DNA of 64,000 bases from Patescibacteria group bacterium. GTDB lineage: Bacteria; Patescibacteriota; Patescibacteriia; Patescibacteriales; JAQVLT01. This document shows, in pieces, positions 6,930-46,830 of this stretch. The DNA is taken from contig JAQVLT010000003.1 of the NCBI GenBank assembly GCA_028704015.1, forward strand, positions 36,997 to 100,996, read 5' to 3'. Below the pieces are notes generated by a model. It saw only the letters and a list, made by a program, of their open reading frames with translations, was not told the DNA's origin and made no database searches. Made by a program: the position numbers and the translations under genes. The stretch's first letter is position 1. Every line of letters starts with the position of its first letter.

Positions 6930-7040
6930 AGAATGTAATTGGTGATTGGTAATTTGCAATTTGGCCGTATTTGCGGCTCTCCTCCAAAGCTTACCAAATT
7001 ACTGATTACAAATTACTAATTACTATTATATAAATAAAAA

Positions 7041-7670
7041 TTATCTTGAATAAAACTCAACGATCATCTGAATATTTAAATTGCTTCTTATATCATCCAT
7101 AGTCGGCAAATGTAAAATTTTTCCGCTTAATTCCTCAGTATTAACATTTACCCAGCTAGGCAGAGTTGCTTTTTTTAATTTTTCACCCAAATCTTTAAAA
7201 TGTTTAAACTTTTTACTTCTTTCTTTGACTTTAACAATATCACCAACTTTTACGGAATAAGACGGAATATTCACTGCTTTGCCATTTACGGTAAAATGGC
7301 CATGATTTACTAATTGCCGAGCTTGATTCCGTGAATTCGCCATATTTAAACGATAAACCGCGTTATCCAATCTTAATTCCAAAAGTTTAAATAAATTATC
7401 TCCGGTATTGCCTGAATGTTTCTTGGCTTTTTCAAAAGTGATAGAAAATTGCTTCTCATTTAAATTATATTGTTTCTTGGCTTTTTGTTTTTCGGTTAAC
7501 TGAATGCCATAGTCGCTCTGCTTTCTCTTATTCTTTTGGCCATGGCAACCAGGCGGATAGTTTCTTTTTACCATCGCGCATTTCTGCGTGCTACAACGAT
7601 CGCCTTTAAGCATCAGCTTTTCGCCTACTCGTCTGCATTGTTTGCATTTTGGATCTAAATTTCTTCCCAT
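7041..7670 (-). CDS. rpsD: 30S ribosomal protein S4
   Basis: 209 aa with the Cys-cluster N-terminus CKQCRR..C..QKC and an S4 domain (RLDNAVYRL). Confidence 0.93.
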   Translation of the reverse strand: MGRNLDPKCKQCRRVGEKLMLKGDRCSTQKCAMVKRNYPPGCHGQKNKRKQSDYGIQLTEKQKAKKQYNLNEKQFSITFEKAKKHSGNTGDNLFKLLELRLDNAVYRLNMANSRNQARQLVNHGHFTVNGKAVNIPSYSVKVGDIVKVKERSKKFKHFKDLGEKLKKATLPSWVNVNTEELSGKILHLPTMDDIRSNLNIQMIVEFYSR

Positions 7671-7698
7671 ATTTATTAATTAGAAATTCTTAAATTTA

Positions 7699-8304
7699 TT
7701 ATACTCTTCTTGGCTTCTTCGGACGGCAACCATTGTGAGGAATCGGAGTAATATCTTTGATTGAATTAATGTATAAACCATTAGCATTTAAAGCTCTTAC
7801 GGCTGATTCTCGGCCAGTACCAACTCCCTTTATAAAGGCGCTCACTTCTTCCAGGCCATAATCCTGACGCGCTTTTTCAACGGCTATTCTCGTAATAATG
7901 GAGGCGGCGTAAGGAGTTGATTTTTTTGCTCCTTTAAAACCGGCTATACCGGCGCTTGCCCATGAAAGGACATTGCCCTGTACATCAGTCAAGGTTACTA
8001 TCGTATTATTATAAGTGGCGTTAACAAAGGCCATGCCAATATTTGCTTTTCTCACAACTTTTTTCTTTTTCTTTTTGTATGATTTTTTTTCTGATTTATC
8101 ATTTTTTCTGCTTTCCAACTTTTTTCTAACTTCTTCCGGCAATTCTTCAAGTTCCGGTCCATTTTTCTGAGAAACATTTTCTTCAACTTCAAAATTTTCA
8201 TTTTCCTCAACATCAAACTGAGCTTCCTGGTTTGAAACTTCATCTTTTTTTATTTCGTCATTATTTTGTGTATCTTTTTCTTCAGTCATATAAATATAAT
8301 TCAA
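7699..8304 (-). CDS. rpsK: 30S ribosomal protein S11 with a long acidic N-terminal extension
   Basis: Core [18 protein letters not shown]...[13 protein letters not shown]. About 70 extra N-terminal residues rich in E/D/K. Confidence 0.9.
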
Positions 8305-8310
8305 ATTCTT

Positions 8311-8703
8311 TTAAGTTTTTTGCGCTGACATTTTTTTGCCGGAAGTTGCTGTTCTTCTGACGTTGCCGCGAACGGTTCGACTATTAGTCTTGGTTCTCTG
8401 GCCTCTTACCGGCAAACTCTTGGCATGACGCAAACCGCGATATGTATTAATTTCTTTTAATCTTTTAATATTTCCGGAAATATCTCTTTTTAAATCACCT
8501 TCAACGCGATGTTGCTTTTCAATAATTACTCTTAATTTATTTGCCTCTTCTTCGGTTAAATCTTTAACTCTTTTGTTTGGATCAATATCTGCTTGTTTTA
8601 AAATTTTGTTAGAAAGAGTTTGACCAATACCAAAAATATAAGTCAATGATGTTTCCACTCTTTTCTCGTTTGGAATTGTTACGCCAGCGATACGAATTGC
8701 CAT
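8311..8703 (-). CDS. rpsM: 30S ribosomal protein S13
   Basis: [16 protein letters not shown]...[20 protein letters not shown]. Confidence 0.93.
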
Positions 8704-8775
8704 TTTAAGAATTAAGATTTAAGAATTAAGATTTAAGAATTAATCTTAAATCGAAAATCTAAAATCAAAAATTAA

Positions 8776-8889
8776 TTATCCTTGTCTTTGTTTATGTTTA
8801 GGATTCTTGCAAATTATAAAAACCCGTCCTTTGCGTCGGACAGTTTTACAGTCTTTGCATATTTTTTTTACACTCGCGCGTACTTTCAT
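8776..8889 (-). CDS. rpmJ: 50S ribosomal protein L36
   Basis: Hand-translated 37-aa [40 protein letters not shown]. Too short for the ORF track. Confidence 0.9.
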
Positions 8890-8894
8890 AAATA

Positions 8895-9140
8895 TTACAA
8901 TCTATAAGTTACTCTTCCTTTTGTAAGGTCATATGGGCTCATTTCCACCCTTACTCTATCTCCCGGCAATAGTCTGATTTTATTCATTCTCATCTTGCCT
9001 GAGAGATGCGCTAAAATTTCATGACCGTTTTCCAATAAAACTTTAAAAGTCCCTGCCGGCATTAATTCCAGCACTTCTCCTTGCATTTCAATAAAATCCT
9101 TTGAATTTGGAATTGATGTATTTTCTGCCATTTTACACAA
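8895..9140 (-). CDS. infA: translation initiation factor IF-1
   Basis: S1-like core [35 protein letters not shown]. The start may instead be the second ATG at 9131. Confidence 0.92.
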
Positions 9141-9224
9141 AAAACTTGGTAAAATTTAAAAATTTACCAAAATTTTGGTAATTACTACGATTTATTAAAT
9201 ATTATTTATAGTTACGTAAAAATA

Positions 9225-9253
9225 ATTATATATGCTCATCAATTTATTGTCAA
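9225..9253 (-). promoter_or_regulatory. consensus sigma70-type promoter for the infA-rpsI operon
   Basis: Minus strand reads TTGACA (9253-9248), a 17-nt spacer, then TATAAT (9230-9225). Confidence 0.55.
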
Positions 9254-9311
9254 GAGACTGGGTTGTGAATAATATTGGGTCAAAAATTTTTCGTTTTCTT
9301 TTGGTATTATT

Positions 9312-11252
9312 TTATTCCAAAATCGCCTTGATTCTGCGCACACCAGAACTAGAACTTTCTTCTTTTTGGATTTTAAAATGCCCGAGCTCGCCGGTTCGCT
9401 CTACGTGCGGCCCGCCGCAAATTTCATAAGAAATAACATCGCTTCCCTCGCCGATTTTATAAACTTTTACTTTTTCGCCATACTTTGAATCAAACACGCC
9501 CATCGCGCCTTTTGCCTTGGCTTCATCCAGATTTAATTCCTCGCAAGACACTGGCAGATCTTTGGCTATCGCTTCATTCACTATTTTTTCAACTTCAATT
9601 TTTTGCGCATCGGTCATTTTTTCCGGATGCGAAAAATCAAACCGCAAACGCTCGGCAGTAATATTACTCCCCTTCTGTGTGACGTGATCGCCAAGAACTT
9701 TTCGCAAAGCCGCCAGTAAAAGATGCGCCGCTGTATGCAACTTCGTTGTTTCACGGCTGGCATCCGCCAAACCGCCCTTGAAAGTGCCGGCGCTCGCGGT
9801 ACGAGATTGTTCCTGATGCTTTTTTTGCTCCTCTTCAAATTCTTTATACATTTTTTCAATTGGAATATATATTTTTTTGATAGACAATTCTTCTAAAGAC
9901 ATTTCTAGCGGAAAGCCATATGTTTGAAATAAATCAAATAATTTTTTACCAACATCCGAAAAATCACTTAAATGTTTCCAATCTTTATCTTTATAAAATG
10001 ACGAAAATTTTTCAAATTCCTTTAACCCCTTTTCAATGGTTTTATTAAATTTCTCTTCCTCTTTCTTAAATTCTTCAATCACAAAATCAATATTTTTTCG
10101 CAGTTCGGGAAAAACATCGCCATAATCATGCGCGACAATCTTGGCGATTTCTTTTGTCCACGGGTATTCCGTAATGCCGAGCATGCGTCCATAGCGAATC
10201 GCGCGGCGAAGCAAGCGGCGGACAATGTATCCGGCGCCGACATTGGACGGTAAAATTCCTTTGTCATCGCCGACAATGAAAGTCGCGGCCTTGAGATGAT
10301 CAGCAATCACTTCAAAAGCGCGAACATTATCTTTGTAAACTTTTCCGCCGGAAAGCATGGAAATCTTATTCAAAATATGTTCAAACATGTCGGTCTCAAA
10401 ACTGTTGTCTTTGCCTTGCGCGACCATAGTCAATCGTTCTAAGCCGCCGCCAAAGTCCACATTTTTCTGGGGTAATTTTTCAAAACCTTTTTCAGTACGG
10501 ATAAATTCCATGAAGACATTATTACCAATCTCCACAAATCTTCCGCAATCGCAATTCACATGGCATGGCTCATCTTTCCAGGGAGAATTTTCGTGGCGTT
10601 TCAAATCCGCGCCCAAATCGTAAAACATTTCCGAATCCGGTCCGCCCGGCTCGCCCACCGGCATCTTGGCTGGCGCGCCGGAACGCGACCACCAATTTTT
10701 ATCACCATAATAAAATATCCGACCATCATCCAAACCATTTTCCCAAGAATTATCAACATCTTTCGCCTCAATGCCGGCGCTTAAAAATAATTTTTTCCAG
10801 ATCTCCACCGCTTCGGCGTCGCGCGGAATGCCAATCTCGTCATTGCCGCGAAAAACCGTTACATAAAGTCGCTTAGGATCTATGTTTATTTCTTTAGTTA
10901 AAAATTCAAAAATCCAAGATAACTGTTCTTGTTTAAAATAATCACCGAGAGACCAATTACCCAACATTTCAAAAACAGTGTGATGACGGCTGTCGCCCAC
11001 ATCTTCAATATCTTCGGCGCGAAAAGATTTCTGTGAATTAACCAACCGCGTGCCAGCCGGATGCTTAGCGCCCAAAAGATAAGGTACGAGCGGTTGCATG
11101 CCAGAACCGATAAAAAGAGTTGAGGAATCGTTTTCCGGAATCAAAGAAGCCGAGGGAATAATTACATGCCCCCTGGATTTTCCGCCCGAGGCGGATCCGC
11201 CTTTGGAGGAAAAAAATTCTAAATATTTTTGTCGTATTTCTTTGGAAGTCAT
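9312..11252 (-). CDS. alaS: alanine--tRNA ligase (short form, no C-Ala domain)
   Basis: 646 aa. N-terminus IRQKYLEFFSSKG..GHVIIPSASLIP and editing-domain HTAAHLL. Carries a 9-aa insert GSASGGKSR. Confidence 0.92.
   Translation of the reverse strand: MTSKEIRQKYLEFFSSKGGSASGGKSRGHVIIPSASLIPENDSSTLFIGSGMQPLVPYLLGAKHPAGTRLVNSQKSFRAEDIEDVGDSRHHTVFEMLGNWSLGDYFKQEQLSWIFEFLTKEINIDPKRLYVTVFRGNDEIGIPRDAEAVEIWKKLFLSAGIEAKDVDNSWENGLDDGRIFYYGDKNWWSRSGAPAKMPVGEPGGPDSEMFYDLGADLKRHENSPWKDEPCHVNCDCGRFVEIGNNVFMEFIRTEKGFEKLPQKNVDFGGGLERLTMVAQGKDNSFETDMFEHILNKISMLSGGKVYKDNVRAFEVIADHLKAATFIVGDDKGILPSNVGAGYIVRRLLRRAIRYGRMLGITEYPWTKEIAKIVAHDYGDVFPELRKNIDFVIEEFKKEEEKFNKTIEKGLKEFEKFSSFYKDKDWKHLSDFSDVGKKLFDLFQTYGFPLEMSLEELSIKKIYIPIEKMYKEFEEEQKKHQEQSRTASAGTFKGGLADASRETTKLHTAAHLLLAALRKVLGDHVTQKGSNITAERLRFDFSHPEKMTDAQKIEVEKIVNEAIAKDLPVSCEELNLDEAKAKGAMGVFDSKYGEKVKVYKIGEGSDVISYEICGGPHVERTGELGHFKIQKEESSSSGVRRIKAILE
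11175..11201. repeat. about 27-nt GC-rich imperfect palindrome in frame in alaS
   Basis: GGATTTTCCGCCCGAGGCGGATCC. It interrupts the conserved FFxSKGH motif. Confidence 0.7.
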
Positions 11253-11261
11253 ATTATATTT

Positions 11262-11295
11262 AGGTGTCCGACACCCTATAGGGTGTCGGACACCT
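11262..11295. terminator. perfect 34-nt palindrome between the MTase-like gene and alaS
   Basis: AGGTGTCCGACACCCTATAGGGTGTCGGACACCT. Flanked by an A-run and a T-run, 10 nt upstream of the alaS ATG. Confidence 0.5.
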
Positions 11296-11327
11296 TTTAT
11301 AAAATTTTATCTTTTGAAGTTATAATT

Positions 11328-12326
11328 TTATTTTACTAAACGTGCTACTAAATATATTTTATCATCTCTCTGAACCAAGACTTCGCCATAATCGGGCGTG
11401 CCATCTTCTTCGATTTTTGCGCTAGCTGAATCAGCGCGAAAACAATAAGAATAATAATCGGAAAAAATAACTTGCGAAAATCCGACGGCCCCTGCTAACT
11501 TTCTAACTTGATCTTCCATTTTTTTTCTTAATGAACCTCTGTTAATCTCCATAATTTCAAAAGTTGGCGCTTGTTTCCTTTTTAAATATTGCTCTTTTGC
11601 TTCGCCGAAAAGCTGCTCCACCATTATTAAACTTCCTCCCGGTTTTAAAATTTTGTAAGACTCGCCCAATACCCTTTGAATATTTTCATCAGTAGTTGAT
11701 ACTTTAACTATTTCTGGACGATCTTTGTCGCCCACTTTTCCCATTTTTAATAATCTTACTAATAAATGGTCGGTGCAAATTAAATCGGCTGTGTCTTCTT
11801 TATAAGGAAGATTAAAAACATCTCCCCTGACTAAAAGTTGGCCCCTGCTTTTATCAATCGTTTTTAACTCTTCATGCTGAAGATTAGTAAGAATTTCTTC
11901 AGAATTTGAATTTAATTTTTTTGAAATTTTATTAAATTCCGCAGCCGAAACATCGCCAGCGCAACCCAAGAAAACAAATCTTGCTTTTTCAAGTCTTCTT
12001 AATCTATTTATTTCCTCTTTGCCTAGTAATTTTAAAATGCTGGGCAGATCAATACCGATTGTCTGAACGAAAGAATAAATTTCTCTTTTTGTTAAACCAG
12101 ATTCCTGAATATCACCCATGCTTTCGTCATATACTCTATTTCCCTCTCTATAAAGAGCATTTTGCATATCCCAGAATTCCTCTTGGCTGCCGTTAAATAA
12201 TCCTCTTCTCTTTGCTTCTTCGTAAATAACTTTGTTTAATTTATCGGGATCATCATAAGCATAAACAATATTTCCTTGTTTAGATGCGGTTTCAATTGTA
12301 TTATTCATTCTTTCTGCCATAATCAA
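11328..12326 (-). CDS. hypothetical protein with a methyltransferase-like C-terminal half
   Basis: 332 aa. VFLGCAGDVSAAEF and ILKPGGSLIMVEQ resemble MTase motifs I and post-III. N-terminal half unassigned. Confidence 0.45.
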   Translation of the reverse strand: MIMAERMNNTIETASKQGNIVYAYDDPDKLNKVIYEEAKRRGLFNGSQEEFWDMQNALYREGNRVYDESMGDIQESGLTKREIYSFVQTIGIDLPSILKLLGKEEINRLRRLEKARFVFLGCAGDVSAAEFNKISKKLNSNSEEILTNLQHEELKTIDKSRGQLLVRGDVFNLPYKEDTADLICTDHLLVRLLKMGKVGDKDRPEIVKVSTTDENIQRVLGESYKILKPGGSLIMVEQLFGEAKEQYLKRKQAPTFEIMEINRGSLRKKMEDQVRKLAGAVGFSQVIFSDYYSYCFRADSASAKIEEDGTPDYGEVLVQRDDKIYLVARLVK

Positions 12327-12371
12327 ATCTTACAAAAAATATCTAATTTTGGCAAGAATAAAAACAAATTC

Positions 12372-12399
12372 TTGACTACCAATGAAACAATACTATAAT
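12372..12399 (+). promoter_or_regulatory. sigma70-type promoter
   Basis: TTGACT (12372-12377), 16-nt spacer, TATAAT (12394-12399). Confidence 0.45.
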
Positions 12400-12434
12400 A
12401 AATATAATCACTTTTTTATAAACCATATTCCAAA

Positions 12435-12584
12435 ATGGGGTGGGAAGACATGAGAGAGAAGAAGAGAAATAAATTAACGCCCGGAGAATTCATCAGCAAG
12501 CTTGGGGATTTATTTTCACATAGACTCGCCAAGCTCATTTTCTGGCTCGTTTTTGTTCTTTACATTTGCGCCTTAATCAAATAG
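12435..12584 (+). CDS. small hydrophobic-tailed protein (49 aa), hypothetical
   Basis: Hand-translated MGWEDMREKKRNKLTPGEFISKLGDLFSHRLAKLIFWLVFVLYICALIK. Lies between a consensus promoter and a terminator. Confidence 0.3.
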   Translation: MGWEDMREKKRNKLTPGEFISKLGDLFSHRLAKLIFWLVFVLYICALIK

Positions 12585-12615
12585 TGATGATAAGGCGAAG
12601 GCGGAAATAAAAAAC

Positions 12616-12650
12616 GGCAAGGTCTTAGAGTCCTTGCCACTTTTTATTTT
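12616..12650. terminator. bidirectional hairpin GGCAAGG-N9-CCTTGCC with T-runs on both strands
   Basis: Read directly. Confidence 0.55.
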
Positions 12651-12658
12651 GTCAAGTT

Positions 12659-12997
12659 TTATTTTTTCAAACTTTCCCCTTCCTTACATTCATTACGGAA
12701 AAATTTCCATTCTTCACATTCGCTTCCGTCCTTAAATCCGCACATGCCATATTCACCGCCGGTAGCATCTTTTTTTATTTCTAGTTGTCCGCCCCTTTCC
12801 TCGCAATTTACTGACGCCGGATTAGCCAAGCCGGCTGCCGGCGTAAACTCAACCGCGTTATTGGCTCCCCTTCTTTGCGTGTAGCATTTTCCGTTCTGAA
12901 AGTAAAAAATCATAATCGCTAAAATTATAACTATCACGGTAAGGGCAATTACAAAAACTGTTAAAATTACATTTGCATTAGATGATGTTTTTTTCAT
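12659..12997 (-). CDS. DUF333-type (putative hemolysin-like) membrane-anchored protein
   Basis: N-terminal TM, then NPASVNCEERGGQL...GMCGF.DGSECEEWKFFRNEC, a DUF333-like Cys pattern. Confidence 0.65.
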   Translation of the reverse strand: MKKTSSNANVILTVFVIALTVIVIILAIMIFYFQNGKCYTQRRGANNAVEFTPAAGLANPASVNCEERGGQLEIKKDATGGEYGMCGFKDGSECEEWKFFRNECKEGESLKK

Positions 12998-13027
12998 AAA
13001 AATTAAAATTATAAAATTTTTATTAAA

Positions 13028-15649
13028 CTATTTTTCTATTACCATCGCGTAATATTTATCTACATTCAAAACGTCTTCAATGTGCCAGCCGTTTTCACTG
13101 ACTTTTGAACTAACCGGATATTTCCAGACGGCGCGCAAATTTGCCGGCAAAAATAAATTGGAAATAATCTTATCGCCAATTGATCCTGGTTGTTTTTGAA
13201 CAAATAACGAATAAGGCAATAAACTTTTCTGGTCGGGATTTAACAAATTTTCTATTTTTCCGAACCAACCCGCATCATCCCGAGGAGCTTCTTTGATTGT
13301 AAATGGTAATTTGTATTTGAGCACAACTGTTTTTATTTCTCCCGGCTCAAGCATAAACCAATTGGCAAAAACTGTTTTTCCATTCTCATTGTAAATTTTT
13401 GTTTTATTTTCTTCGTCAATTCGCGCTAAATTTTCCGTCTGAGCAATAAAAGGATCAACGCTCAATGATTCTTCTGGCTGTTTAGCGATATATTCTTTTT
13501 CATCCAGCTCGCTAAAACCCTCAGCGGATAAAAGTTCGCTCCCAGCCGGCACATAAACTCTCATCCAATCTAAATTTCGCACGCCGGTGAACAAATCTCC
13601 GCGGCTGGCATTGTGTTTTCTTGTAATCACCACGGTGTCAATAATGCTTCCATCATCGGCTATTTCCGCTTGGTGATTTATTGTTTCGTCAATCACTTTG
13701 TCGCTTTTCTGCCCGTAAATATTGGTATTAACAACTGATAAATAATCCCATTTGTTTTCTTCCATTTTTCCATCCCAACCGCGTTGGGCGATTTCTTTTT
13801 CCAATTTTTCATCAGTAAAATAAAATAAAATATGTTTTTCATTCAAATTGCCTTCTATTGCTTTTAAAATTTCAACGAATTTGTCCTTGTTATTGATTCT
13901 CTTTGGCAATTCAACGAGAATAGCATCCATTAAATCGCGGATAATTTCCTTGGGTTTAGCTTTGTCAACCTCAACTTTTCCGGAGGTGGAATCTTTTAAT
14001 TTGTCCAATTCTTCTTCACTTAAATTTCCCGCTTCAACTATTTTCTGAGTAGTATCCCAAAAATTATCCGCGTCAATCACCACGCCATATTTGGCCGTCA
14101 TATCAATCGGGCCGAGTACTCTTAAAATTCTCTCTAATACTGTCGGGGTAAAACTGATCACACCATCAACGGTCGGGCCATCGCTTTTTTCATAAAACCA
14201 TTTCAGCTTCTCCGCGCTGGTCGGCCAATCAGGCCACCAATTCGCATTCCAAAAAAACCAGCGCGTCCCAATAAGCCAAAATGGTTCGGGCGCCAAAACT
14301 GATTCTCTAAGCCCGGCCGTAGTGTCATAACTCCCGCCAGCCGGAGCTTCAATATTTTTTATTTTTCCATTTTGAAAATCTACGAGCGCGTAACTGCCGA
14401 CAAAACCGCCCGAACCGCGCATTTCGGAATTATTTTGAAAAACTAACAAATAACGTTTATTGCCGGCAACACCTAAAAATTCTTTGAGCTTTTCAGAAAT
14501 CAAAATAAAATCTCCCAAGCCGGCTTCCAGATCGGCTGATTTATTTCTCAAAAAAATAAACTGCTCTCTGTATTCAATGGGTAAAACATCAATATCAATC
14601 TGCGATAAATGACTATTCAAACTCGCGGCCGCTTCACGTGATTTTTCTCCATATAAAACAAAATTATCTAAAATTTTTGCCATGTCTTTCTCGCCACCTG
14701 AAAATAAACTTTGCAAAGCTAAACTCATATTTTCACCCAAAATGGCGGCATTCTCGCCGGCGGCGAGCATTTCTCGACTATAAGCGGCCAAACGCGCTTC
14801 GTCGCTAGGCGCATAAGCTGCTAATCTAAAAAGCAAACTGTTTATTTCTCCAAGCTCTTTTTCAGCTGAAAAAAATTTCTCACTTGCTTCGGAAAAATTG
14901 TTTGAAGCTTTATTAAAATCCAGATTCATCACGTCTTTGGAGCCATTAATAAAACTGGAAAAACCCGCTTCGGAAGCTAACACGACTTTATTTTTTAAGT
15001 CGCTTAAATTTATAGTTTTATAAAAATCTAAAAATTTAAAAGGCAAAATGATGATGAGCAGAAGTAAAGCGAATTTGAAAATTCCCTTGAAGGAATGTTT
15101 TTTATTGTCATTCTGATCCCGCTCTAGCGGGAGAAGAATCTCGGGTTTATCTATAAATTTCTTTGATTTAGCTTTTGCGTTTAGTATTGTCTCTCGCGCT
15201 TTCTGAGATCCCTGCCTGCCGGCAGGCAGGCTTCGTCCTCTGTTTGCGACCAGAGGATTCAGGATGACAATCGCTTTTTTTATCATTTTCCCCACCCACT
15301 TAACCAAAAATACCGGCGCAAAAATAACGCCATAAAAAAAATATTTTAAATAAACAAAAATATTCCTGCAAAAAATTTTTATTCCGGAAAAAACCCGGGA
15401 AACTTTTTCGACTAAAATTTTGAATAAACCAAAAAACTTTTTAAATAAAACAAAAATAATAAATATCTTGGCAAAAAACTTGAAAACGTTAATAAATATT
15501 TCTTTAAAATCAACATGAACTTTTGAACTATTTTTATGTTTTGATGCTTTAATGTTCTCGCGCGGTTTCAAATCCACAACAAATCTAGACGCTCGATCAT
15601 TTGCGCCAATATTAAAACTGCTAGATTGTTTATCTTTTCCGACAAGCAT
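13028..15649 (-). CDS. DUF4012-like large membrane-anchored protein
   Basis: 873 aa. RYLLVFQNNSEMRGSGGFVGSYA resembles the DUF4012 core. Contains the 168-nt element at 15104-15271. Confidence 0.65.
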   Translation of the reverse strand: MLVGKDKQSSSFNIGANDRASRFVVDLKPRENIKASKHKNSSKVHVDFKEIFINVFKFFAKIFIIFVLFKKFFGLFKILVEKVSRVFSGIKIFCRNIFVYLKYFFYGVIFAPVFLVKWVGKMIKKAIVILNPLVANRGRSLPAGRQGSQKARETILNAKAKSKKFIDKPEILLPLERDQNDNKKHSFKGIFKFALLLLIIILPFKFLDFYKTINLSDLKNKVVLASEAGFSSFINGSKDVMNLDFNKASNNFSEASEKFFSAEKELGEINSLLFRLAAYAPSDEARLAAYSREMLAAGENAAILGENMSLALQSLFSGGEKDMAKILDNFVLYGEKSREAAASLNSHLSQIDIDVLPIEYREQFIFLRNKSADLEAGLGDFILISEKLKEFLGVAGNKRYLLVFQNNSEMRGSGGFVGSYALVDFQNGKIKNIEAPAGGSYDTTAGLRESVLAPEPFWLIGTRWFFWNANWWPDWPTSAEKLKWFYEKSDGPTVDGVISFTPTVLERILRVLGPIDMTAKYGVVIDADNFWDTTQKIVEAGNLSEEELDKLKDSTSGKVEVDKAKPKEIIRDLMDAILVELPKRINNKDKFVEILKAIEGNLNEKHILFYFTDEKLEKEIAQRGWDGKMEENKWDYLSVVNTNIYGQKSDKVIDETINHQAEIADDGSIIDTVVITRKHNASRGDLFTGVRNLDWMRVYVPAGSELLSAEGFSELDEKEYIAKQPEESLSVDPFIAQTENLARIDEENKTKIYNENGKTVFANWFMLEPGEIKTVVLKYKLPFTIKEAPRDDAGWFGKIENLLNPDQKSLLPYSLFVQKQPGSIGDKIISNLFLPANLRAVWKYPVSSKVSENGWHIEDVLNVDKYYAMVIEK
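15104..15271. mobile_element. 168-nt MITE-like element inserted in frame
   Basis: TIRs ATTGTCATTCTGA and TCAGGATGACAAT (12/13 match). Internal GATCCCTGCCTGCCGGCAGGCAGG at 15207-15230. Same architecture as 18263-18420. Confidence 0.65.
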
Positions 15650-15792
15650 GGGGAAAGAGAAAATTTTAAATTCTAAATTTTAAATTTTAAATTTTAATTA
15701 ATTGATATTGATAATTGTTAATTAATTATAATTATACTACAAAATGGTATTGAAAGTAAAATAAAAGGGCTACCCACTGAAAGTGAATAGCC

Positions 15793-17070
15793 CTAAAGAG
15801 ACAAAGAGTCTCCGGTCATGGGCGCATAAGCTTCGCACCCAAGCTCGCGCGCCAGGCAAACCACTGCCTGACAAGCTTGCGGACTGCCATGCTGGGCAAT
15901 GACAATCCGAGGTTTGACCATCTGAATCGCTTGGCGGATGGCCGCGGCATCGGAATGAGCGGAGAAGCTTAGCTTCTCAACGTGGCAGCCCAATCTGACG
16001 CGTTCTCCACCAACGGAAATATTGCCAGTTTTCAGAAGATCTCTCCCTCTTGTGTCCTCTGCCTGATAACCGGCCAAAATAAGGAGATTCTTCGGATCAG
16101 GACCTTTTACTCGGATGTATTCCATGATAGGACCGCCCTCAAGCATGCCGCTCGTGGCGACAAATACACCTTGCGAAATTAGGTGTATCTGGCGATCCCA
16201 TTGGGAAATCCGCCTGACGGAGTAAAGCGCTTGGCGAAGTGCTTCGGGATCCCGAAGATATTCCGAATGCGCGAGAAATACATCCGTCACATTATTCCCC
16301 ATGCCATCCAAATGCACCGGGCAAGAGAGGCCCATCTCGGCAAGGAGAAGGAGAATCTCTTGCGTCCTCGCCAGCGCGAAGGCGGCGATCATCACTGAAC
16401 CGCCACCAGCGATTGTCTCGGCAACCAGAGACTTAAATCTCTCTTCAACCGCAGTCCTGTCAGGATGCGACCTGTCCCCATAAGTCGCATCAATGATAAG
16501 AATCTCCGCATGCGGAAGACGCTCGCATTTTTTCACGAGGCGAGTATCCATGCTATTAAAATCGCCGGTATAAAGCAATGACCTCCTACCTTGCTTCAGA
16601 ATGATACTGACTGAGCCGGGAATATGGCCAGCCGGGAAAAACTGATAGTGGACATTGCCGCGACGACCCTTTTCTTTGTACCGCATGAGCGACAGTACTC
16701 TCTCAATGTCGCTCTCATTATATCGCGGCTCTTGCTTCTTCTTCGCCGCAATTTTCAGAGAGTCATAGAGAAGAAGCTCTGCCGCTTCTTTGGTGATCGG
16801 CGTACAGAAGACGGGGCAATTCAGCCCATCTTTTGCCAGTTCAGCCAAGCCGCCAACATGGTCAAGATGCCCATGAGAAATCGCCGCGAAGCTGATTTTC
16901 TCCAGCCGCGTGATTTTTTCGGGCCAAGCCATAATTTTGGTTCCGCCTATGTTCGCGGGTTTGAGTCCATAATCAAGAAGGATCCGAGACCCATCAGGAA
17001 ATACTGCTTCGATGCAGCTTCTCCCAACTTCGGATCCTGCACCGTGCATTGTTATCCCGATGTTTCCCAT
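15793..17070 (-). CDS. MBL-fold beta-CASP family hydrolase (RNA/DNA-processing nuclease type)
   Basis: HGHLDHVGG motif and C-terminal FSAHSDAAAI...AQHGSP (beta-CASP motifs B/C). GC-rich. The ORF track begins at GTG 17079; ATG 17070 follows GGAGA. Confidence 0.8.
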   Translation of the reverse strand: MGNIGITMHGAGSEVGRSCIEAVFPDGSRILLDYGLKPANIGGTKIMAWPEKITRLEKISFAAISHGHLDHVGGLAELAKDGLNCPVFCTPITKEAAELLLYDSLKIAAKKKQEPRYNESDIERVLSLMRYKEKGRRGNVHYQFFPAGHIPGSVSIILKQGRRSLLYTGDFNSMDTRLVKKCERLPHAEILIIDATYGDRSHPDRTAVEERFKSLVAETIAGGGSVMIAAFALARTQEILLLLAEMGLSCPVHLDGMGNNVTDVFLAHSEYLRDPEALRQALYSVRRISQWDRQIHLISQGVFVATSGMLEGGPIMEYIRVKGPDPKNLLILAGYQAEDTRGRDLLKTGNISVGGERVRLGCHVEKLSFSAHSDAAAIRQAIQMVKPRIVIAQHGSPQACQAVVCLARELGCEAYAPMTGDSLSL

Positions 17071-17131
17071 ATTGACCACATCTCCTCTCGCTTTGATTTT
17101 TAGCTAAAAAGAACAACTTTACAGATTATGA

Positions 17132-17160
17132 ATATTATCAATTAAAAATAACCCTGTCAA
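17132..17160 (-). promoter_or_regulatory. sigma70-type promoter for the MBL gene
   Basis: Minus strand reads TTGACA, 17-nt spacer, TAATAT. Confidence 0.45.
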
Positions 17161-17213
17161 CTTCAAAATATTATTTAAAATTAGCAAAAATTAATAGTTT
17201 CTTAATAAAAACG

Positions 17214-17242
17214 TTGACAAAATAATTAAGATATGTTATTAT
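17214..17242 (+). promoter_or_regulatory. sigma70-type promoter
   Basis: TTGACA (17214-17219), 17-nt spacer, TATTAT (17237-17242). Confidence 0.45.
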
Positions 17243-17272
17243 TTTATGTTAATTGTTCTTTGAAAGACGTTT

Positions 17273-17330
17273 AGTTCTTGCCGGTTTTGTTGCTAAAATT
17301 TAGCGCTAAAACCGGCAAGAACTGTTTTTT
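17273..17330 (+). terminator. leader terminator/attenuator hairpin
   Basis: Perfect 16-bp stem AGTTCTTGCCGGTTTT / AAAACCGGCAAGAACT, 19-nt loop, then GTTTTTT. Sits between the promoter and the ATG at 17392. Confidence 0.5.
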
Positions 17331-17391
17331 GTTTTCAATTTTACGCGCTTTTCGCGCGCACCCATTCACACACCACAAAGGAGGAAGCACC

Positions 17392-18096
17392 ATGACGGAA
17401 GAGCGATATGACCATATTATGGTAAGCCTCAGGGCAAACCGGAACATGGTGGAGAGGGGGCGAAAGTTGGGTCTCCCCTACGTATTCCGGACAAAGCAAC
17501 AGCAGAAAGAGCTAACCGCGCTGTATGCGGCGAAAGCGGGTGAGGCCAAGGCGTTCCGGCTGGAGCGCGAGGACACCGCCGGCAATCCCCAGGCTGACGG
17601 TGGCAACCTCGTCTTCGGACGGAATGGCCAGGAGAACATCCATCTCTGGTCCCTCTTGGACGACTTGTCCAAGGCCGGCTACGGTCTGACCATCGCCGAG
17701 GTCTTCCAGAAGGAGAGCGACAGTAACGGCGTTGGTTTCATCAGGTTTGTTTTTACCCACGACAAAGCCGTTGTGATGCCGACCTTCTTCGAGGTCAGCG
17801 AAGAACAAGAGCGCTTTATGACTCTTCTCTTCAAACGCCTTTACCGGAAGGTGCACGGTTTCCGAAACAACGCGGCGGTCTCGCTCGAGGGCGAACAAAA
17901 CCCGATCCAGGGGCCCATCATCACGCTCAACGTGGCCGGCCCAGTCACGGAAGCGCGTGAACTCGAAGAGCGGCGCCCTTATCGCCGCGACCTGCGGCTC
18001 CTGGACGAGCTCGGGCATTTCCGGTGCCCGCTCCACGACTCCCAGGCCCACGCTCTGGCCAAGAAGCAGAAGGCCTCCGTCCAGGCCCCCGCCTGA
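17392..18096 (+). CDS. hypothetical protein (GC-rich, no recognisable domain)
   Basis: The ORF track starts at 17278, but ATG 17392 is preceded by AAAGGAGGAAGCACC. 234 aa. Confidence 0.55.
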   Translation: MTEERYDHIMVSLRANRNMVERGRKLGLPYVFRTKQQQKELTALYAAKAGEAKAFRLEREDTAGNPQADGGNLVFGRNGQENIHLWSLLDDLSKAGYGLTIAEVFQKESDSNGVGFIRFVFTHDKAVVMPTFFEVSEEQERFMTLLFKRLYRKVHGFRNNAAVSLEGEQNPIQGPIITLNVAGPVTEARELEERRPYRRDLRLLDELGHFRCPLHDSQAHALAKKQKASVQAPA

Positions 18097-18262
18097 CCCC
18101 ACCCTCGTTCTTTATCTTCCGACCCAATCGGGTCATATCTGGCCCCCGGCAAGAACAACACAAAAAATCGTGTTCGTTTCTTCCGGGGGTCTTGTCTTTT
18201 TAAAAATAAAAATCCCCGAAAGGTGGGGTCAAAAAATAAATTTGAGAGCCGAAAAATCTCTA

Positions 18263-18420
18263 TTTTGTCATCTCGAATCCCCCGGTCGCAACCGGGGGTG
18301 AGAGATCTATAATACTTTGTTTTCCTATAAAGCATTATTTATGCGCTTCGCCGTATATTAAAGATCCCTGCCTGCCGGCAGGCAGGTCTCGCACGCCTCG
18401 GGCGGGTCGAGATGACAAAA
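18263..18420. mobile_element. 158-nt MITE-like element (intergenic copy)
   Basis: Perfect 14-bp TIRs TTTTGTCATCTCGA / TCGAGATGACAAAA. Internal hairpins CCCCCGG..CCGGGGG and GATCCCTGCCTGCCGGCAGGCAGG (18363-18386). Confidence 0.65.
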
Positions 18421-18444
18421 AAATATTTTTTCTCAAATTTTAAA

Positions 18445-19836
18445 TCAATCAATTCTTAAATGCCAAAAATCTTTAAATATTTCTCTAACTTCGTTTAAAT
18501 TACCTTGCCCCATTAATTCTTTAGCATCTATTTCCTCTCTGCCTACCCATTCGGGCACCGGCTTATCCTCATAAAGCTCAAACAAATTAGCCAAAAAAGT
18601 AGTGGCGTAAGAACCCTTGCGCAGAAAAAACTGAACTACTGCTCCGCCGGCAAATATTTTGAATTTTAAATTAGCGGGATAAATCCTGCCAGGCGTTGTT
18701 CTCTTGGTTAAATAAACAAATTTCAAGGGCTGCAAATTTTTTAAAAAATTCTCGGTGCCGTCTTCGGCTAAATATTTCTGATAAAATTTATGATCATCAG
18801 GATCATCGCTTAAAAGAAGCGGAAATTCTTCGTTCACACAGCCCTTCTCACGGCTATATTCAGACAAATATTTGTTAAACAAAAGACTGGAATAAGCATA
18901 GAGGCAAATTGTTGCGCTATTCTTTACCTCGTTAAGCGCGCCAATAAAATTATTCGGTTTATTTTTTAAATATTCAACAATTTTCAATTCATTCAAAAAG
19001 CTATAAGGCAATCTTTCAAAAATTTTTGCTATTTCCAAAAAATTCGGATAAATTTTTTCGGCTTCTTTCTTTAATTCCGCAATTAATGGCATTTCGTATT
19101 CATTGGTTTTGAATAGAATATAACGAATAGCCAGTTCATATTTTCCTTGCATTATTAATTTTCCGATTTTATGGCTATCCAAACGCACGCTACCGAATCT
19201 TTGGCTTTGATAATAATTTAATATGCCATATTTTTCTATATTATCAATTTTTGCGGCCAGTAAACTCTCGTCGATTTTATCCTCGGTTCTGACGGTGATA
19301 GTAAACAAATTCCCTTCCAAATCCCCGGGACGGAGAAAGTCTTTTCCGTAATGCAAGTCGGATAACTTTAAATTGAGAATATTTTTTTCGGCAACATCTT
19401 CGATGGCAATCGGCTGATCCCTAAAAGCAATCAGTTGCGCCGTAAGAGCATATTCATCCTTAAGCCCGGCATAACCAATACGGCCATTAAAATTTAATGT
19501 TTGCTTTAATCTTTCAATCGCATCGGTCGTTGTGATCCCGATTTTTACCATATTGGCATAAAGAGTTTTTTCATTTTTTTCCCGTTCGCGATTCGCCTGG
19601 CTAAAAATATTAATCGGAATGACTTCTCCTTTTTCCGTTTTTTCTTCCACAATAAAGTCTTCAAAAAAATATCTCAGATATCCTTTTGGTTTATTCTGGG
19701 GAATATTCCAAATACCGATTTCTTTAAAAACATCCGCCTCTTTTCTTCTATTTTTCGGCTCAAGCAATTCAGGATTGTTTTTTTCCAGATCTTTGATTAT
19801 TTTTCGTTGTTTTTTCCAAGCTTCTTGAGAATCCAT
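18445..19836 (-). CDS. truD: tRNA pseudouridine synthase TruD/Pus7 family
   Basis: FEDFIVEE, GYAGLKDEYALTAQ (catalytic Asp motif), NYYQSQRFG, GSYATTFLANLFE. Confidence 0.75.
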   Translation of the reverse strand: MDSQEAWKKQRKIIKDLEKNNPELLEPKNRRKEADVFKEIGIWNIPQNKPKGYLRYFFEDFIVEEKTEKGEVIPINIFSQANREREKNEKTLYANMVKIGITTTDAIERLKQTLNFNGRIGYAGLKDEYALTAQLIAFRDQPIAIEDVAEKNILNLKLSDLHYGKDFLRPGDLEGNLFTITVRTEDKIDESLLAAKIDNIEKYGILNYYQSQRFGSVRLDSHKIGKLIMQGKYELAIRYILFKTNEYEMPLIAELKKEAEKIYPNFLEIAKIFERLPYSFLNELKIVEYLKNKPNNFIGALNEVKNSATICLYAYSSLLFNKYLSEYSREKGCVNEEFPLLLSDDPDDHKFYQKYLAEDGTENFLKNLQPLKFVYLTKRTTPGRIYPANLKFKIFAGGAVVQFFLRKGSYATTFLANLFELYEDKPVPEWVGREEIDAKELMGQGNLNEVREIFKDFWHLRID

Positions 19837-19840
19837 ATTT

Positions 19841-21049
19841 TTATTTTAACATATTTTTATAAACCGCCACTGTCTCCTCTGCCGCCTTATCCCAGCTATA
19901 TTTTTTTATCTGTTCAAAACCTTTTTGAATTAAATTTTGTCGCAAATTTTCGTCCTTGATTATTAATTTAATTTTTTTTATCATATCATCTTCATTTTCG
20001 GGATCAAAATAAATTGCCGCTTCGCTCAGAACTTCAGGAAGGCAAGATCTATCTGAACTTACTACCGGACAGCCCTGGCTCATAGCTTCTAAGGGCGGCA
20101 AACCAAAACCTTCATAAAGCGAAGGAAAAACATAGGCTGAGGCGTTTTGAAATAAAAATTTCAAATCTTCGTCCGGCACAAAACCGGGAAAATTAACCGG
20201 CGAATCTTCATCGTCTTTAAACAATCTTAATCCGCGAGCATAGTCTTTCACGCGTTTATAAAAATAATCTTCTTTGCCAACTAAAACCAATTTTAAATCA
20301 CTAAACCTTTCACGCAATTTCGGTAAAATTTTAATAAGCATTTCCAAATTCTTATGCGGATAAGCATTGCCAACGTAAAGGATAAACCTCTTTCCTCCCT
20401 CTCCCCCGTCCCCTCTCCTAATTAGGAGAGGGGTGTCTGAGCGAAGTGAAGACGAGGAGAGGTACTGGACTGGGGGTGAGGGAAAAGTTGTCCCTTCATA
20501 AATCATCACGATTTTTTTCGGCTTGACTTTGAATTGTTTTATTATATCTTCTTCTGTATATTTTGAAACAGCAATAATTTTTTTGGCACGCTTAACCGCT
20601 GTCCAGATAACAATTTTATAAAACAAATTTTTCAGTTTATACAGCCAAGGGCTCAAAGTACTCGCGCGTTGGGTGGGATATTTAGTGAGAATCAAATCCG
20701 GAATGGTAACGACAAATTTTACGGGCGTTAATATCGGCACATTAAAATGCGTAAAATGCATCAAACTAACATGTTCGCGCCAAATTAAAAACGGGAGCAT
20801 TATTTGCTCCTTCAAAGTATACCAGCGCGCATTGGCTAATACCTTCTTAACACCCTGGCGCGGCACGACAAAACTATCGTAATTGTCCTTATACAAAAAA
20901 ATTACGTAATCATTTTCCGTATCTTTCCTAATAACCCGATCAACAATTTCCTGCGTGTATCTCCCCAATCCTTTACCGACAGGGCCGTAGAAGCGAGCGT
21001 CAATGCCGATCACGTTATTTTTCTTTTTTAATTGCTCATGTCTACTCAT
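19841..21049 (-). CDS. GT4-family glycosyltransferase
   Basis: EGFGLPPLEAMSQGCPVV (E-x7-E). Interrupted by a palindromic-element peptide. Confidence 0.82.
   Translation of the reverse strand: MSRHEQLKKKNNVIGIDARFYGPVGKGLGRYTQEIVDRVIRKDTENDYVIFLYKDNYDSFVVPRQGVKKVLANARWYTLKEQIMLPFLIWREHVSLMHFTHFNVPILTPVKFVVTIPDLILTKYPTQRASTLSPWLYKLKNLFYKIVIWTAVKRAKKIIAVSKYTEEDIIKQFKVKPKKIVMIYEGTTFPSPPVQYLSSSSLRSDTPLLIRRGDGGEGGKRFILYVGNAYPHKNLEMLIKILPKLRERFSDLKLVLVGKEDYFYKRVKDYARGLRLFKDDEDSPVNFPGFVPDEDLKFLFQNASAYVFPSLYEGFGLPPLEAMSQGCPVVSSDRSCLPEVLSEAAIYFDPENEDDMIKKIKLIIKDENLRQNLIQKGFEQIKKYSWDKAAEETVAVYKNMLK
20386..20485. repeat. about 100-nt variant of the CCCCTCTCCTAATTAGGAGAGGGG element, in frame
   Basis: Core palindrome at 20410-20433. 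Translated ...SLRSDTPLLIRRGDGGEGG... Confidence 0.75.
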
Positions 21050-23794: not shown

Positions 23795-24049
23795 ATGTAC
23801 ACAGTGTATATTTTAAAAGATGAAAATGGAAATTTGTATAAAGGCATGACAAGTGATATAAAACGAAGATTAAATGAACATCGGCGAGGAAAAACACAAA
23901 CTACTAGAAGAATGAAAAATATCAAATTAGTTTATCAAGAAGAGCTGGCTACATTTGATGCTGCACGCAAAAGAGAATTATATTTGAAAACTGCCGCTGG
24001 AAGAAAATTTATAAAAGAAAAATTAAGGACGCTTAGCTCAGCTGGTTAG
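23795..24049 (+). CDS. small GIY-YIG nuclease family protein (UPF0213/YhbQ-like)
   Basis: 84 aa. YTVYILKDENGNLYKGMTSDIKRRLNEHRRGK... The last 7-8 codons and the stop lie inside tRNA-Val. Confidence 0.85.
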   Translation: MYTVYILKDENGNLYKGMTSDIKRRLNEHRRGKTQTTRRMKNIKLVYQEELATFDAARKRELYLKTAAGRKFIKEKLRTLSSAG

Positions 24050-44318: not shown

Positions 44319-45497
44319 TTATAATTTAAAATTTAAAATTTTACTGTATTCCTTTCCCACTCTTTCCCAACTAAATTTTTCCACTCTTTTCAAACCTTTC
44401 GCGATTAAGCTTTCACGCAATTTTTGATTATTTAAAACTTCTTCAATCGCTTTGGCGATTTCATTAATATTAAAAGGATTTACCAGTATTGCCGCCTCGC
44501 CGACAACTTCCGGCAGACTGGAAACCGCGCTCGCGATTACCGGCGTGCCCGAGGCCATAGCTTCAAGCGGCGGAAAACCGAATCCTTCATAAAAAGACGG
44601 GAAAACAAAAACCGAAGCAAGTTTGTAGAGAGCCGGCTTGTCTTCGTCATCAACATACCCCAAGAATATTATATCATTTTTATACTTAGATTTCTCGCGC
44701 TCCGCCAAAATACTCTCATATTTCCAGCCCATGCCACCAGCTATAATCAACTTTTGACAACCTGCCTGCCGGCAGGCAAGGTTAACATTTGACAATTGAC
44801 TTCTATACTTATTGTAAGCCTGAATAAGGCCAACGATATTTTTTCTCGGCTCAACCGTACCCAAAAATAAAATGTATTTTTCTGGAAGGTTATATTTCTT
44901 TCTAATATTTTGAAATTTGGGAATTGAAAATTGAAAATTGAAAATTTTAAAGCGTTCATCAACACCCGAGTATATTACCCTCGCTTTCTCCTCTGGCACC
45001 CCACATAATTCCACAACATCCCGTCTGGTGTTTTCCGATATCGCAATTACTAAATCAAACTGCTTAATCAATTTTTTTACATTCAAGGCACGGTGCCAAA
45101 TATTTTTTCGCCAGCTGAAATACTCCGGATACCGCAGAAATGACAAATCATGAATGGTGATAATTTTCCGGCAATCCGAGGAAAGCGACAAAAAATTAAT
45201 GTGCGGCGCCCAAAAAACATCCACTCCGCCTAGCAACTTGTCAATCTTCGGCCAGCAAAAAATTTTTTGCAAAATATAATTAAAAATTTTATTCGGATAT
45301 TTGGTTCTATAAATTTTAACATTGGGCTGATCAAATTTCGGCAACCGCTCGCTGATATCGCGATAAGAATTGTAATATAACAAATATTCATTACTCTTAT
45401 CCTCTGCTAAAATTTCTTTAACTAAAGCCAACGTGTACTCCGACACGCCACTATATCGCTTATCCATGAGTGTCCGAATATCAATGCCAATTTTCAT
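44319..45497 (-). CDS. GT4-family glycosyltransferase
   Basis: [20 protein letters not shown]. Contains the insert [12 protein letters not shown]. Confidence 0.85.
44759..44783. repeat. 25-nt palindrome of the CCTGCCTGCCGGCAGGCAGG family, in frame
   Basis: AACCTGCCTGCCGGCAGGCAAGGTT. Confidence 0.75.
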
Positions 45498-46727: not shown

Positions 46728-46830
46728 CTTTTGTCATTCCGGATCCGCCCGGGGGCGTAATCCGGAATCCCCGCCTACACCGAGGCTTCGGCGGGCAGGC
46801 AGGAGCCAGCGATAAAAACATTATTTTTCC
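46728..46830. repeat. degenerate copy of the TTGTCAT...GGCAGGCAGG element (intergenic)
   Basis: TTTTGTCATTCCGGATCCGCCCGGGGGCG...CGGCGGGCAGGCAGG. No matching right TIR seen. Confidence 0.5.

Follow-up and report, generated by a model that had tools for sequence, protein, structure and literature searches.

A 168-bp palindromic repeat lies in frame in a gene for a DUF4012 membrane protein on contig JAQVLT010000003.1 of a Patescibacteria group bacterium (GenBank assembly GCA_028704015.1). The stretch analysed, referred to as the window, covers 64,000 nucleotides (positions 36,997 to 100,996 of the forward strand of the contig), and coordinates are given within it. The repeat at 15104-15271 is tagged with TGTCAT, is situated in the linker of the DUF4012 protein and is most probably translated as a tolerated, unstructured loop in the manner of the Rickettsia palindromic elements (RPEs). 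We estimate the probability of this reading at roughly 80%. A preliminary description, made from the letters alone, had proposed a complete 168-nt element with terminal inverted repeats (TIRs) matching in 12 of 13 positions, similar to a miniature inverted-repeat transposable element (MITE) and read through in the host gene.

Architecture of the element

The host gene and the parts of the element are located as follows.

13028..15649, minus strand: gene for the DUF4012 membrane protein, host of the element (873 aa; Pfam PF13196, E = 1.8e-29)
15104..15271, no strand assigned: complete element of 168 bp; two hairpin arms tagged with TGTCAT, in inverted orientation, enclose an AT-rich spacer
15104..15142, plus strand: left arm, composed of TIR/tag, GC hairpin and inner end
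15104-15116: left TIR/tag ATTGTCATTCTGA
15117-15132: left-arm GC hairpin TCCCGCTCTAGCGGGA
15133-15142: left-arm inner end GAAGAATCTC
15143..15204: AT-rich spacer; in the cassettes of L017, L059 and L123, the arms enclose a GIY-YIG open reading frame (ORF) in this slot (L numbers denote individual stretches of other sequences fetched for comparison)
15205..15271, minus strand: right arm, in minus-strand reading ATTGTCATCCTGA, hairpin CCTCTGGTCGCAAACAGAGG, CGAAG, 20-nt palindrome and GATCTC
15205-15210: GAGATC
15211..15230: nested perfect palindrome of 20 nt, CCTGCCTGCCGGCAGGCAGG, translated as LPAGRQG
15237-15256: right-arm hairpin CCTCTG..CAGAGG, CCTCTGTTTGCGACCAGAGG
15259-15271: right TIR TCAGGATGACAAT

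The features of the preliminary description were all found in their places, including the AT-rich middle and the second hairpin, and the two ends match, as ATTGTCATTCTGA and TCAGGATGACAAT are complementary in 12 of 13 positions. The first hairpin, previously given as CCCGCT-CT-AGCGGG, is present as well; a stem of 5 bp with a 4-nt loop is more realistic than one of 6 bp with 2 nt. A 24-nt block named as one unit is likewise there and was refined to GATC and a separately nested 20-nt palindrome. Deletion of this palindrome from the right arm yields the canonical inner end GAAGGATCTC (compare the arms in L018, L087 and L088).

The pattern TTGTCATYYYGA was matched four times in 64 kb with 0.04 matches expected, and all four are ends of the two complete elements of the window. 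The palindrome core occurred four times in the window (0.01 expected). Single strands of the 15104-15271 copy folded more stably than shuffled sequences, with z = -5.2 as DNA and -5.9 as RNA. The G+C content was 47% for the element, 28% for the coding sequence immediately upstream and 38% for the window. Rfam contained no family for either complete element or for the 17.1-18.4 kb region, at gathering as well as at permissive thresholds. Judged by their layout, the TIRs are not transposase ends; each arm consists of (T)TGTCAT, a hairpin and ATC, which is the layout of the Neisseria repeats NTS and dRS3.

Reading frame and start of the host gene

The element makes up 56 stop-free codons of the minus-strand ORF 13028..15649 and is in phase 0 with it, as had been proposed. 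The earlier assignment of the host gene to DUF4012 was right, with the correction that it lies on the minus strand. The peptide quoted at the time is encoded; its 57 residues include a leading A from the upstream codon, and the element proper corresponds to IVILN...DQNDN (aa 127-182). In the host protein, an SRFVVDL motif (aa 21-27) and a long helix precede the element peptide, which is followed by a transmembrane helix (approx. aa 187-212) and the DUF4012 domain (aa 396-535). Of the six frames through 15104-15271, only the host frame is open, while the other five carry stops. That the single open frame is the one in use fits a survival of frame-preserving insertions only; at one in six, it is weak evidence when taken alone.

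The 126 aa encoded before the element can be aligned with full-length orthologues from the first residue of both onwards (P0002, E = 5e-10; P0004, E = 2e-9; P numbers denote homologues), and the host protein is 49% identical to P0002 from end to end. Within this N-terminal part, residues S21, F23, D26 and L27 of the SRFxxDL motif were invariant in an alignment of 33 sequences; the comparison of orthologues that the preliminary description had suggested thus placed conserved sequence upstream of the element. The stretch from aa 182, where the element ends, to the transmembrane helix (approx. aa 187) contains no ATG, GTG or TTG in frame, and the next such codon is a TTG at aa 202 within the helix. 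The NCBI protein MDD4332763.1, annotated on the source contig of 101,988 bp by the Prokaryotic Genome Annotation Pipeline (PGAP), is identical to the full sequence of 873 aa. N-terminal homology, the invariant motif, the start-free stretch before the helix and the NCBI annotation together support a start codon at 15649, upstream of the element.

AT-rich tandem heptamers (TAAATTT, TAAATTC and variants) were observed in intergenic positions upstream of genes, namely, at 15660-15705 directly before the DUF4012 start, at 21087-21140, at 44229-44345 and elsewhere.

The encoded peptide

The linker that holds the element is variable in length. Among 29 family members, the distance from the SRFVVDL motif to the PFK of the membrane helix ranged from 139 to 307 residues. 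Identity to 32 homologues was lowest in the columns of the element with 0.08; the region of the membrane helix and the DUF4012 domain reached 0.40 to 0.71. An alignment-based AlphaFold2 model gave residues 129-186 as coil with a predicted local distance difference test score (pLDDT) below 50, located between helices at 48-129 and 187-212. The 56-aa peptide had no match among 1.84 billion representative proteins, and a protein search with the N-terminal 200 aa found nothing. Given the variable linker, the low identity, the low pLDDT and the lack of protein relatives, the element peptide is probably a basic, tolerated and disordered loop of 56 residues and not a domain. Tryptic digestion of the host protein is predicted to give AIVILNPLVANR, ETILNAK and FIDKPEILLPLER as peptides spanning the element.

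Other DUF4012 homologues contain inserts of their own. P0012 (aa ~240-280) and P0092 (aa ~95-150) carry arm-like inserts in the N-terminal linker region, and P0032 has other repeat-like inserts at aa ~70-100, ~170-200 and ~555-600. The inserts of these homologues read ..ALLRSRMTG.., VLSFRA...RFLPMVEMTG and PSPSPIAMGEGR and are mostly found in the same N-terminal linker, which makes it a recurrent landing or tolerance site. The view of the preliminary description that the sequence is a repeat element and not a protein domain is borne out by the lack of protein matches, by arms, palindrome and module order that recur in an intergenic copy, by 11 metagenome loci of the same layout and by the occurrence of the palindrome beside an arm end in many phyla.

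Further copies in the window

Two complete copies and one partial copy are contained in the 64 kb.

18263..18420, no strand assigned: second complete element, intergenic; TIR TTTTGTCATCTCGA (14/14), hairpin loop TCGCAA, inner end GAGAGATCT, spacer, GATC with palindrome and TCTC, hairpin, other TIR
18367-18386: palindrome of the second element
46729..46803, plus strand: incomplete third copy, intergenic; after the arm TTTTGTCATTCCGGA-hairpin-TCCGGAATCC comes the half palindrome GGCGGGCAGGCAGG, with no right TIR

The second element had been named as an intergenic twin of the first, and its modules indeed stand in identical order within a perfect 14-nt TIR. Both elements share a 30-nt core (28 of 30 positions). 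Folded as a single strand, the second element reached z = -7.1 against shuffled sequences. The left arm of the second element is a close match to the 3' arm of the L059 GIY-YIG cassette, with compensatory changes in the stem. Among the arms of the window, the one at 46729..46803 comes nearest to the Neisseria NTS consensus (GTCATTCC..GGAATC).

The two complete elements bracket GC-rich genes in a genome of 38% G+C. These are a beta-CASP/RNase J-like gene at 15793-17079 (52% G+C) and an ORF of 234 aa at 17392-18096 (60% G+C) with a strong ribosome-binding site, AAAGGAGG, and no Pfam match. The latter is flanked by hairpins with a common CCGGCAAGAAC at 17275-17322 and 18141-18190. This ORF was possibly acquired horizontally. 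The idea that the two copies and the 3 kb between them make up a composite transposon was rejected, as the DUF4012 N-terminus lies inside the bracket.

Relation to known repeat systems

The NTS of Neisseria, CGTCATTCCCGCG..GCGGGAATC (in full CGTCATTCCCGCGMAVGCGGGAATCYRG), combines a GTCAT tag with a hairpin, and binding depends critically on a C that follows the palindrome (Chenal et al. 2025, PMC11893778). SsnA is a single-domain GIY-YIG protein of 94 aa which binds NTS as single-stranded DNA and cuts a few nucleotides upstream. Ssn-related motifs (SRMs) occur on both sides of ssnA homologues in 42% of cases, across phyla, and an NTS-ssnA-NTS architecture resembling insertion sequences was described, with its mechanism of spread left open (PMC11893778). 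Patescibacteria are not mentioned in that publication.

The elements of the window share this layout. A tag of the form HGTCWY followed by a hairpin is present, as TGTCAT stands at all four element ends and in the partial arm. A C directly 3' of the palindrome is found in AGAATC (15137-15142), GAGATC (18303-18308) and GGAATC (46764-46769); in the two arms bearing the 20-nt palindrome, this insert interrupts the segment with the 3' C. In L017, L059 and L123, which are related loci, a single-domain GIY-YIG gene stands between two motifs, the genome of the window has a GIY-YIG gene as well, and the repeats are spread across phyla as are NTS, dRS3 and SRM. Unlike NTS, which are rarely intragenic (2% in N. 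meningitidis; PMC11893778), the 15104-15271 copy is coding, and the arms of the window fall outside the degenerate SRM pattern; their cleavage by a cognate nuclease is putative. In the fetched loci, the published SRM pattern, which was built from 29 genomes of four phyla (PMC11893778), gave 23 matches (e.g. an arm in L070) compared to 269 generic arms.

Repetitive extragenic palindromes (REPs) with a CGTC tag are mostly inverted dimers with spacers of 20-100 bp, and no transposase is dedicated to them (Di Nocera et al. 2013, PMC3733652). They include Neisseria dRS3 (CGTC-1) as well as RPE-6 (CGTC-1) and RPE-4 (CGTC-4) of R. conorii, and intragenic in-frame copies encode 20-82 residues (PMC3733652). 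RPEs in ORFs are summarised in a review on MITEs (PMC10969869). The element resembles RPE-4 and RPE-6 (Ogata 2000; PMC3733652) as a small palindromic repeat of a reduced genome that stands in frame and stop-free in a conserved gene, adds tens of residues tolerated by the fold and consists of units with a (C/T)GTC tag and a hairpin, often as inverted pairs with 20-100 bp spacers. Host homology is found on both sides of the insert, and the linker in which it lies is compatible with the fold according to the AlphaFold2 prediction. The likeness is one of layout and behaviour. By contrast, the host is a member of the Patescibacteria, the tag is TGTCAT instead of CGTC, and the arms are enlarged by GC hairpins and the 20-nt palindrome. 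A peptide conserved among copies was not seen in the window, which holds one intragenic copy of the arm family, devoid of relatives at the protein level.

With REPINs and BIMEs and their RAYT proteins, the elements have in common that they are inverted doublets of tagged hairpins which fold into a larger hairpin, form modular mosaics, lack target-site duplications and presumably spread as single-stranded hairpin DNA. They differ by the tag, which is TGTCAT and not GTAG, and by the gene associated in related loci, which encodes a GIY-YIG nuclease. The Pfam family Y1_Tnp was absent among the precomputed calls for window positions 3028-15077 and 18353-43824. Classical MITEs and intragenic ERIC and BOX elements are likewise small, have TIRs, lack a coding capacity of their own and occasionally form in-frame ORF fusions (PMC10969869). 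In contrast to classical MITEs, 100 TIR pairs showed no target-site duplication, and the fetched loci contained no parent element with such ends and a DDE transposase. Taken together, the sequences indicate that the element works like the SRM/CGTC-REP superfamily and probably belongs to a divergent branch of it.

Distribution across genomes

A census was carried out on contigs of one genome per species with a pattern of palindrome, 15-45 nt and ATGACAA; taxa were taken from the record titles. At least 119 stretches with the palindrome next to an arm end were detected in many phyla. The taxa among the matches listed comprise Patescibacteria, Bacteroidota, Nitrospirota, Omnitrophota, Planctomycetota, Gammaproteobacteria, Elusimicrobiota and others, and those listed include the Bacteroidota isolates Niastella, Flavivirga, Muriicola and Sinomicrobium. 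A stricter pattern of the element architecture identified 11 metagenome loci, with L124 and L128 being closest to the 15104-15271 copy (62-66% identity). Solo arms also occur, e.g. in L059.

The arm unit common to these sequences reads (T)TGTCAT and a short stem, which a loop or additional hairpin separates from its complement, followed by ATC. The stems covary in at least eight variants, among them ATTCT/AGAAT, ATCCT/AGGAT, ATTGC/GCAAT, ATCTC/GAGAT, ATCCC/GGGAT and ATTCC/GGAAT. A complementary stem was present at 283 of 791 TGTCAT sites compared to 67 in a shuffled control. In other genomes, the copies are scattered and have no common neighbour; MoeA-like, Tgt and membrane glycosyltransferase-like ORFs contain arm and palindrome elements in frame there.

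For 100 TIR pairs from the window and the loci, 56 had no adjacent direct repeat and 38 had one of 1-2 nt only, which is approximately the chance level. The sole clear flanks resembling a target-site duplication among them were observed in Flavivirga sp. 57AJ16, in which both arm pairs (L066 2413-2574 and L075 6887-7023) are flanked by a 7-nt direct repeat (GCCTAGT / ACTAGGC); this may reflect a site-specific target or a longer element. The label 'MITE-like' is therefore loose: it is apt for a small element with TIRs and no ORF of its own, but neither a target-site duplication nor a transposase partner was found. Literature searches with the palindrome and arm-end sequences returned nothing or primers only, and literature on MITEs and REPs in the Candidate Phyla Radiation and Patescibacteria contained no description of this repeat family.

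GIY-YIG nuclease genes

TIR pairs at distances of 300-3500 bp in 1.3 Mb of fetched loci enclosed no transposase; GIY-YIG nuclease ORFs were found instead. Small ORFs of this type (~85-100 aa, Pfam PF01541) are bracketed by inverted arms in L017 (1914-2360), L059 (1150-1652) and L123 (7271-7858), and the inner ends of these arms are identical to those of the window elements. In the fetched DNA, 3 of 10 GIY-YIG ORFs were arm-bracketed compared to 10 of 3221 control ORFs (p = 2.6e-6). As the ORF takes the position of the spacer in these cassettes, the window elements look like ORF-less derivatives of them. Alternatively, arm pairs may be targets into whose centre the GIY-YIG nuclease genes home.

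The window itself contains one such gene.

23795..24049, plus strand: gene for a single-domain GIY-YIG protein of 84 aa (Pfam PF01541, E = 1.5e-13), a candidate for acting on the arms in trans

It is homologous to the arm-bracketed ORFs (jackhmmer, E = 5.6e-27). At 23709-24103, this gene lies inside a tRNA-Val gene: it is preceded by half a copy of the tRNA, which extends from the 5' end to the anticodon loop and contains a GC hairpin insert, and its 3' end overlaps the intact tRNA-Val (24027-24103). A like arrangement was seen in another tRNA gene in L070. Both cases suggest a homing-like insertion of GIY-YIG genes into tRNA anticodon loops.

The nested palindrome and other palindromic inserts

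The 20-mer is present in only one arm of each complete window element, and its deletion restores the inner end of the other arm (GAAG|GATCTC vs GAAGAATCTC; GAGA|GATCT vs GAGAGATCT). The identical 20-mer occurs elsewhere in loops and stems of unrelated arm hairpins, between arms, inside its own copy (L078), in AT-rich tandem repeats and in ORFs. Its flanks showed no common target, and its genome matches belong to more than ten phylum-level groups among the matches listed. The exact 20-mer was also found in 35 stretches of IMG/VR viral contigs (L135-L169, e.g. IMGVR_UViG_3300037242_000417), compared to about 0.05 expected by a rough estimate. It is conceivable, though rather doubtful, that CCTGCCTGCCGGCAGGCAGG is a self-contained insertion module and not part of the element. 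As the palindrome is present in independent assemblies and in the isolates Niastella, Flavivirga, Muriicola and Sinomicrobium, its origin from an adapter or a sequencing artefact was rejected.

One viral contig of 29.5 kb holds six copies of the 20-mer; viruses, or misclassified contigs of the Candidate Phyla Radiation, may carry or spread it. In L078, near position 178 on the minus strand, one copy of the 20-mer contains a second, complete one, inserted one base away from its centre, and arms are extended stepwise in L053 at 1860-1925 (CCTGCCTACCCTGCCTACCCTGCCTGCCGGCAGGCAGGGTAGGCAGGGTAGG). Such palindromes within palindromes suggest iterative growth of the hairpins.

A second palindrome family with the core CCCCTCTCCTAATTAGGAGAGGGG nested in an outer stem was located at 20397-20455, 32899-32957 and 42044-42102. 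Three conserved genes on the minus strand, for a GT4 glycosyltransferase, a Fe-hydrogenase-like protein and MnmA, contain it in frame, and it always encodes ..PLLIRRGDGGE.., with one frame per strand open through its TAATTA loop. A degenerate 20-nt palindrome at 44762-44779 is in frame in the glycosyltransferase ORF 44319..45497 (peptide NLACRQAGC). A variant palindrome with a 1-nt insertion, inside a further small hairpin, is found at 41725-41780 in the C-terminal domain of MnmA (PCLAGRQAS), where the Pfam match is split in two. A solo copy at 40443-40460 is intergenic, downstream of rpsB. Spans of Pfam domains are generally stretched or split at the in-frame palindromic inserts. Counting the TGTCAT arms, the 20-mer and the PLLIRRG family together, such inserts are frequent and were found in five genes of the 64-kb window.

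Discussion

The results can be combined in the following way. A repeat of non-coding type, composed of two inverted (T)TGTCAT hairpin units around an AT-rich spacer and with a nested 20-nt palindrome in one arm, would have inserted into the length-variable cytoplasmic linker between the SRFVVDL/helix region and the transmembrane anchor. Its arms would be divergent, expanded variants of the superfamily of CGTC-tagged REPs, Neisseria dRS3/NTS and SRMs. Arriving in phase 0 with 56 codons and a sole stop-free frame, the repeat would have left the gene intact, and the protein is presumably made with the insert as a loop of 56 residues. By analogy to Neisseria, the repeats may spread as single-stranded hairpin DNA that is handled by an Ssn-like GIY-YIG nuclease, for which one gene is located 8.5 kb away, and the copies without ORF may be MITE-like derivatives of arm-GIY-YIG-arm cassettes.

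Several observations weigh against parts of this reading. The best non-self homologue is only 49% identical and no orthologue with an empty site is at hand, so that the insertion rests on evidence from the family. The arms of the window gave no match to the SRM pattern HGTCWYN(0-2)YYVSBRHN(0-5)WNVSBRGN(0-2)RNCYNB, even with the loop relaxed to 0-30 nt. Target-site duplications, which the preliminary description had proposed to look for, are absent at both complete window copies, and an identity of ~56% between these copies gives no sign of recent activity. The GIY-YIG gene of the window is not flanked by arms and is 38% identical to the ORF of L017; NCBIfam provided no subfamily name for the GIY-YIG proteins, and an assignment to cd10448 was not achieved. 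Finally, an ATG at codon 122 (15286) with a G-rich stretch, GTGGGTGGGGAAA, upstream is a possible alternative start, with which the element would still be included in the protein.

This ATG stands four codons before the element. If it were used, the element would form residues 6-61 of a new N-terminus and the 121 codons upstream would be a relic. The G-rich stretch could serve as ribosome-binding site, and many N-terminal intragenic REPs may be non-coding according to Di Nocera et al. (PMC3733652). However, the 121 codons are open in the same frame and keep the SRFxxDL motif and the hydrophobic helix, and PGAP calls the long form, which makes the short form distinctly improbable. The preliminary description had also considered a start at a non-ATG codon downstream, which would leave the element in the 5' untranslated region or promoter. 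The NCBI record MDD4610545.1 (P0001) seems to agree with this, beginning with KFALLLL just past the element, but it is 'partial' solely because its contig ends at window position 15077. Since the 126 upstream codons in the same frame are homologous to the N-termini of orthologues, invariant residues included, and the first ATG, GTG or TTG after the element is codon 202 inside the conserved transmembrane helix, a downstream start is hardly credible. It is very improbable, too, that the insertion inactivated the gene and that the frame of a young pseudogene stayed open by luck. A chance of one in six is not small, and the mRNA would hold a structure of -59.6 kcal/mol inside the coding sequence; yet the other 817 codons contain neither frameshift nor stop and keep all invariant residues of the family. 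The insert lies in a naturally length-variable, disordered linker in which P0012 and P0092 have arm-like inserts of their own, and other conserved genes of the window bear in-frame palindromic inserts without being disrupted.

The position of the element could also result from a chimeric join of the assembly through the repeat, as both elements have the 30-nt core in common and the contigs of a second assembly, GCA_028707515.1, end 26 nt before the element (15077) and inside the second one (18353). This metagenome-assembled genome is nearly identical, with one mismatch in 12,050 nt, and its breaks at both copies suggest what is expected for repeats; the break at 15077 truncated the public DUF4012 record MDD4610545.1. 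A contig of the Logan collection (SRR22315503) corresponds to window 16017-20427 with no mismatch, spans the second element and ends inside another palindromic repeat (15077, 18353 and 20427 are the ends of L120, L132 and L133). A switch at the shared core would give mismatched ends and was excluded: the TIRs agree within each element (12/13 and 14/14) and differ between them (TTCTGA/TCAGGA vs CTCGA/TCGAG), and both parts of the DUF4012 gene are joined in correct orientation and in frame. An artefact is thus of practically negligible probability. Finally, the structure could be functional for the host and its coding role incidental, either as an Ssn target site modulating recombination or transformation around the GC-rich 3-kb segment or as an mRNA structure tuning DUF4012 expression. 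Complete copies bracket 15272-18262 with its two GC-rich genes (52% and 60% vs 38%), pairs of NTS around genes alter transformation in Neisseria (PMC11893778), and the predicted structure is strong. On the other hand, the segment is no clean cassette, as the N-terminal coding part of the DUF4012 gene lies within it, the palindrome splits the 3' half of the stem of one arm, and copies in other genomes lack a common neighbour. Such a function is improbable, and translation of the repeat as a tolerated loop is preferred.

If this holds, translated palindromic repeats of the RPE type and the Ssn/NTS system of hairpin repeats would extend to the Candidate Phyla Radiation, for which neither is described in the literature searched. 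The repeats also matter for annotation: a second assembly breaks at them, one public DUF4012 record is truncated, and repeat-derived peptides such as LPAGRQG, PLLIRRG and ..QNDN inflate the sequence space of 'hypothetical' proteins. Arm cassettes with and without a GIY-YIG gene would provide a natural set for asking whether Ssn-type nucleases for single-stranded DNA spread their own motifs.

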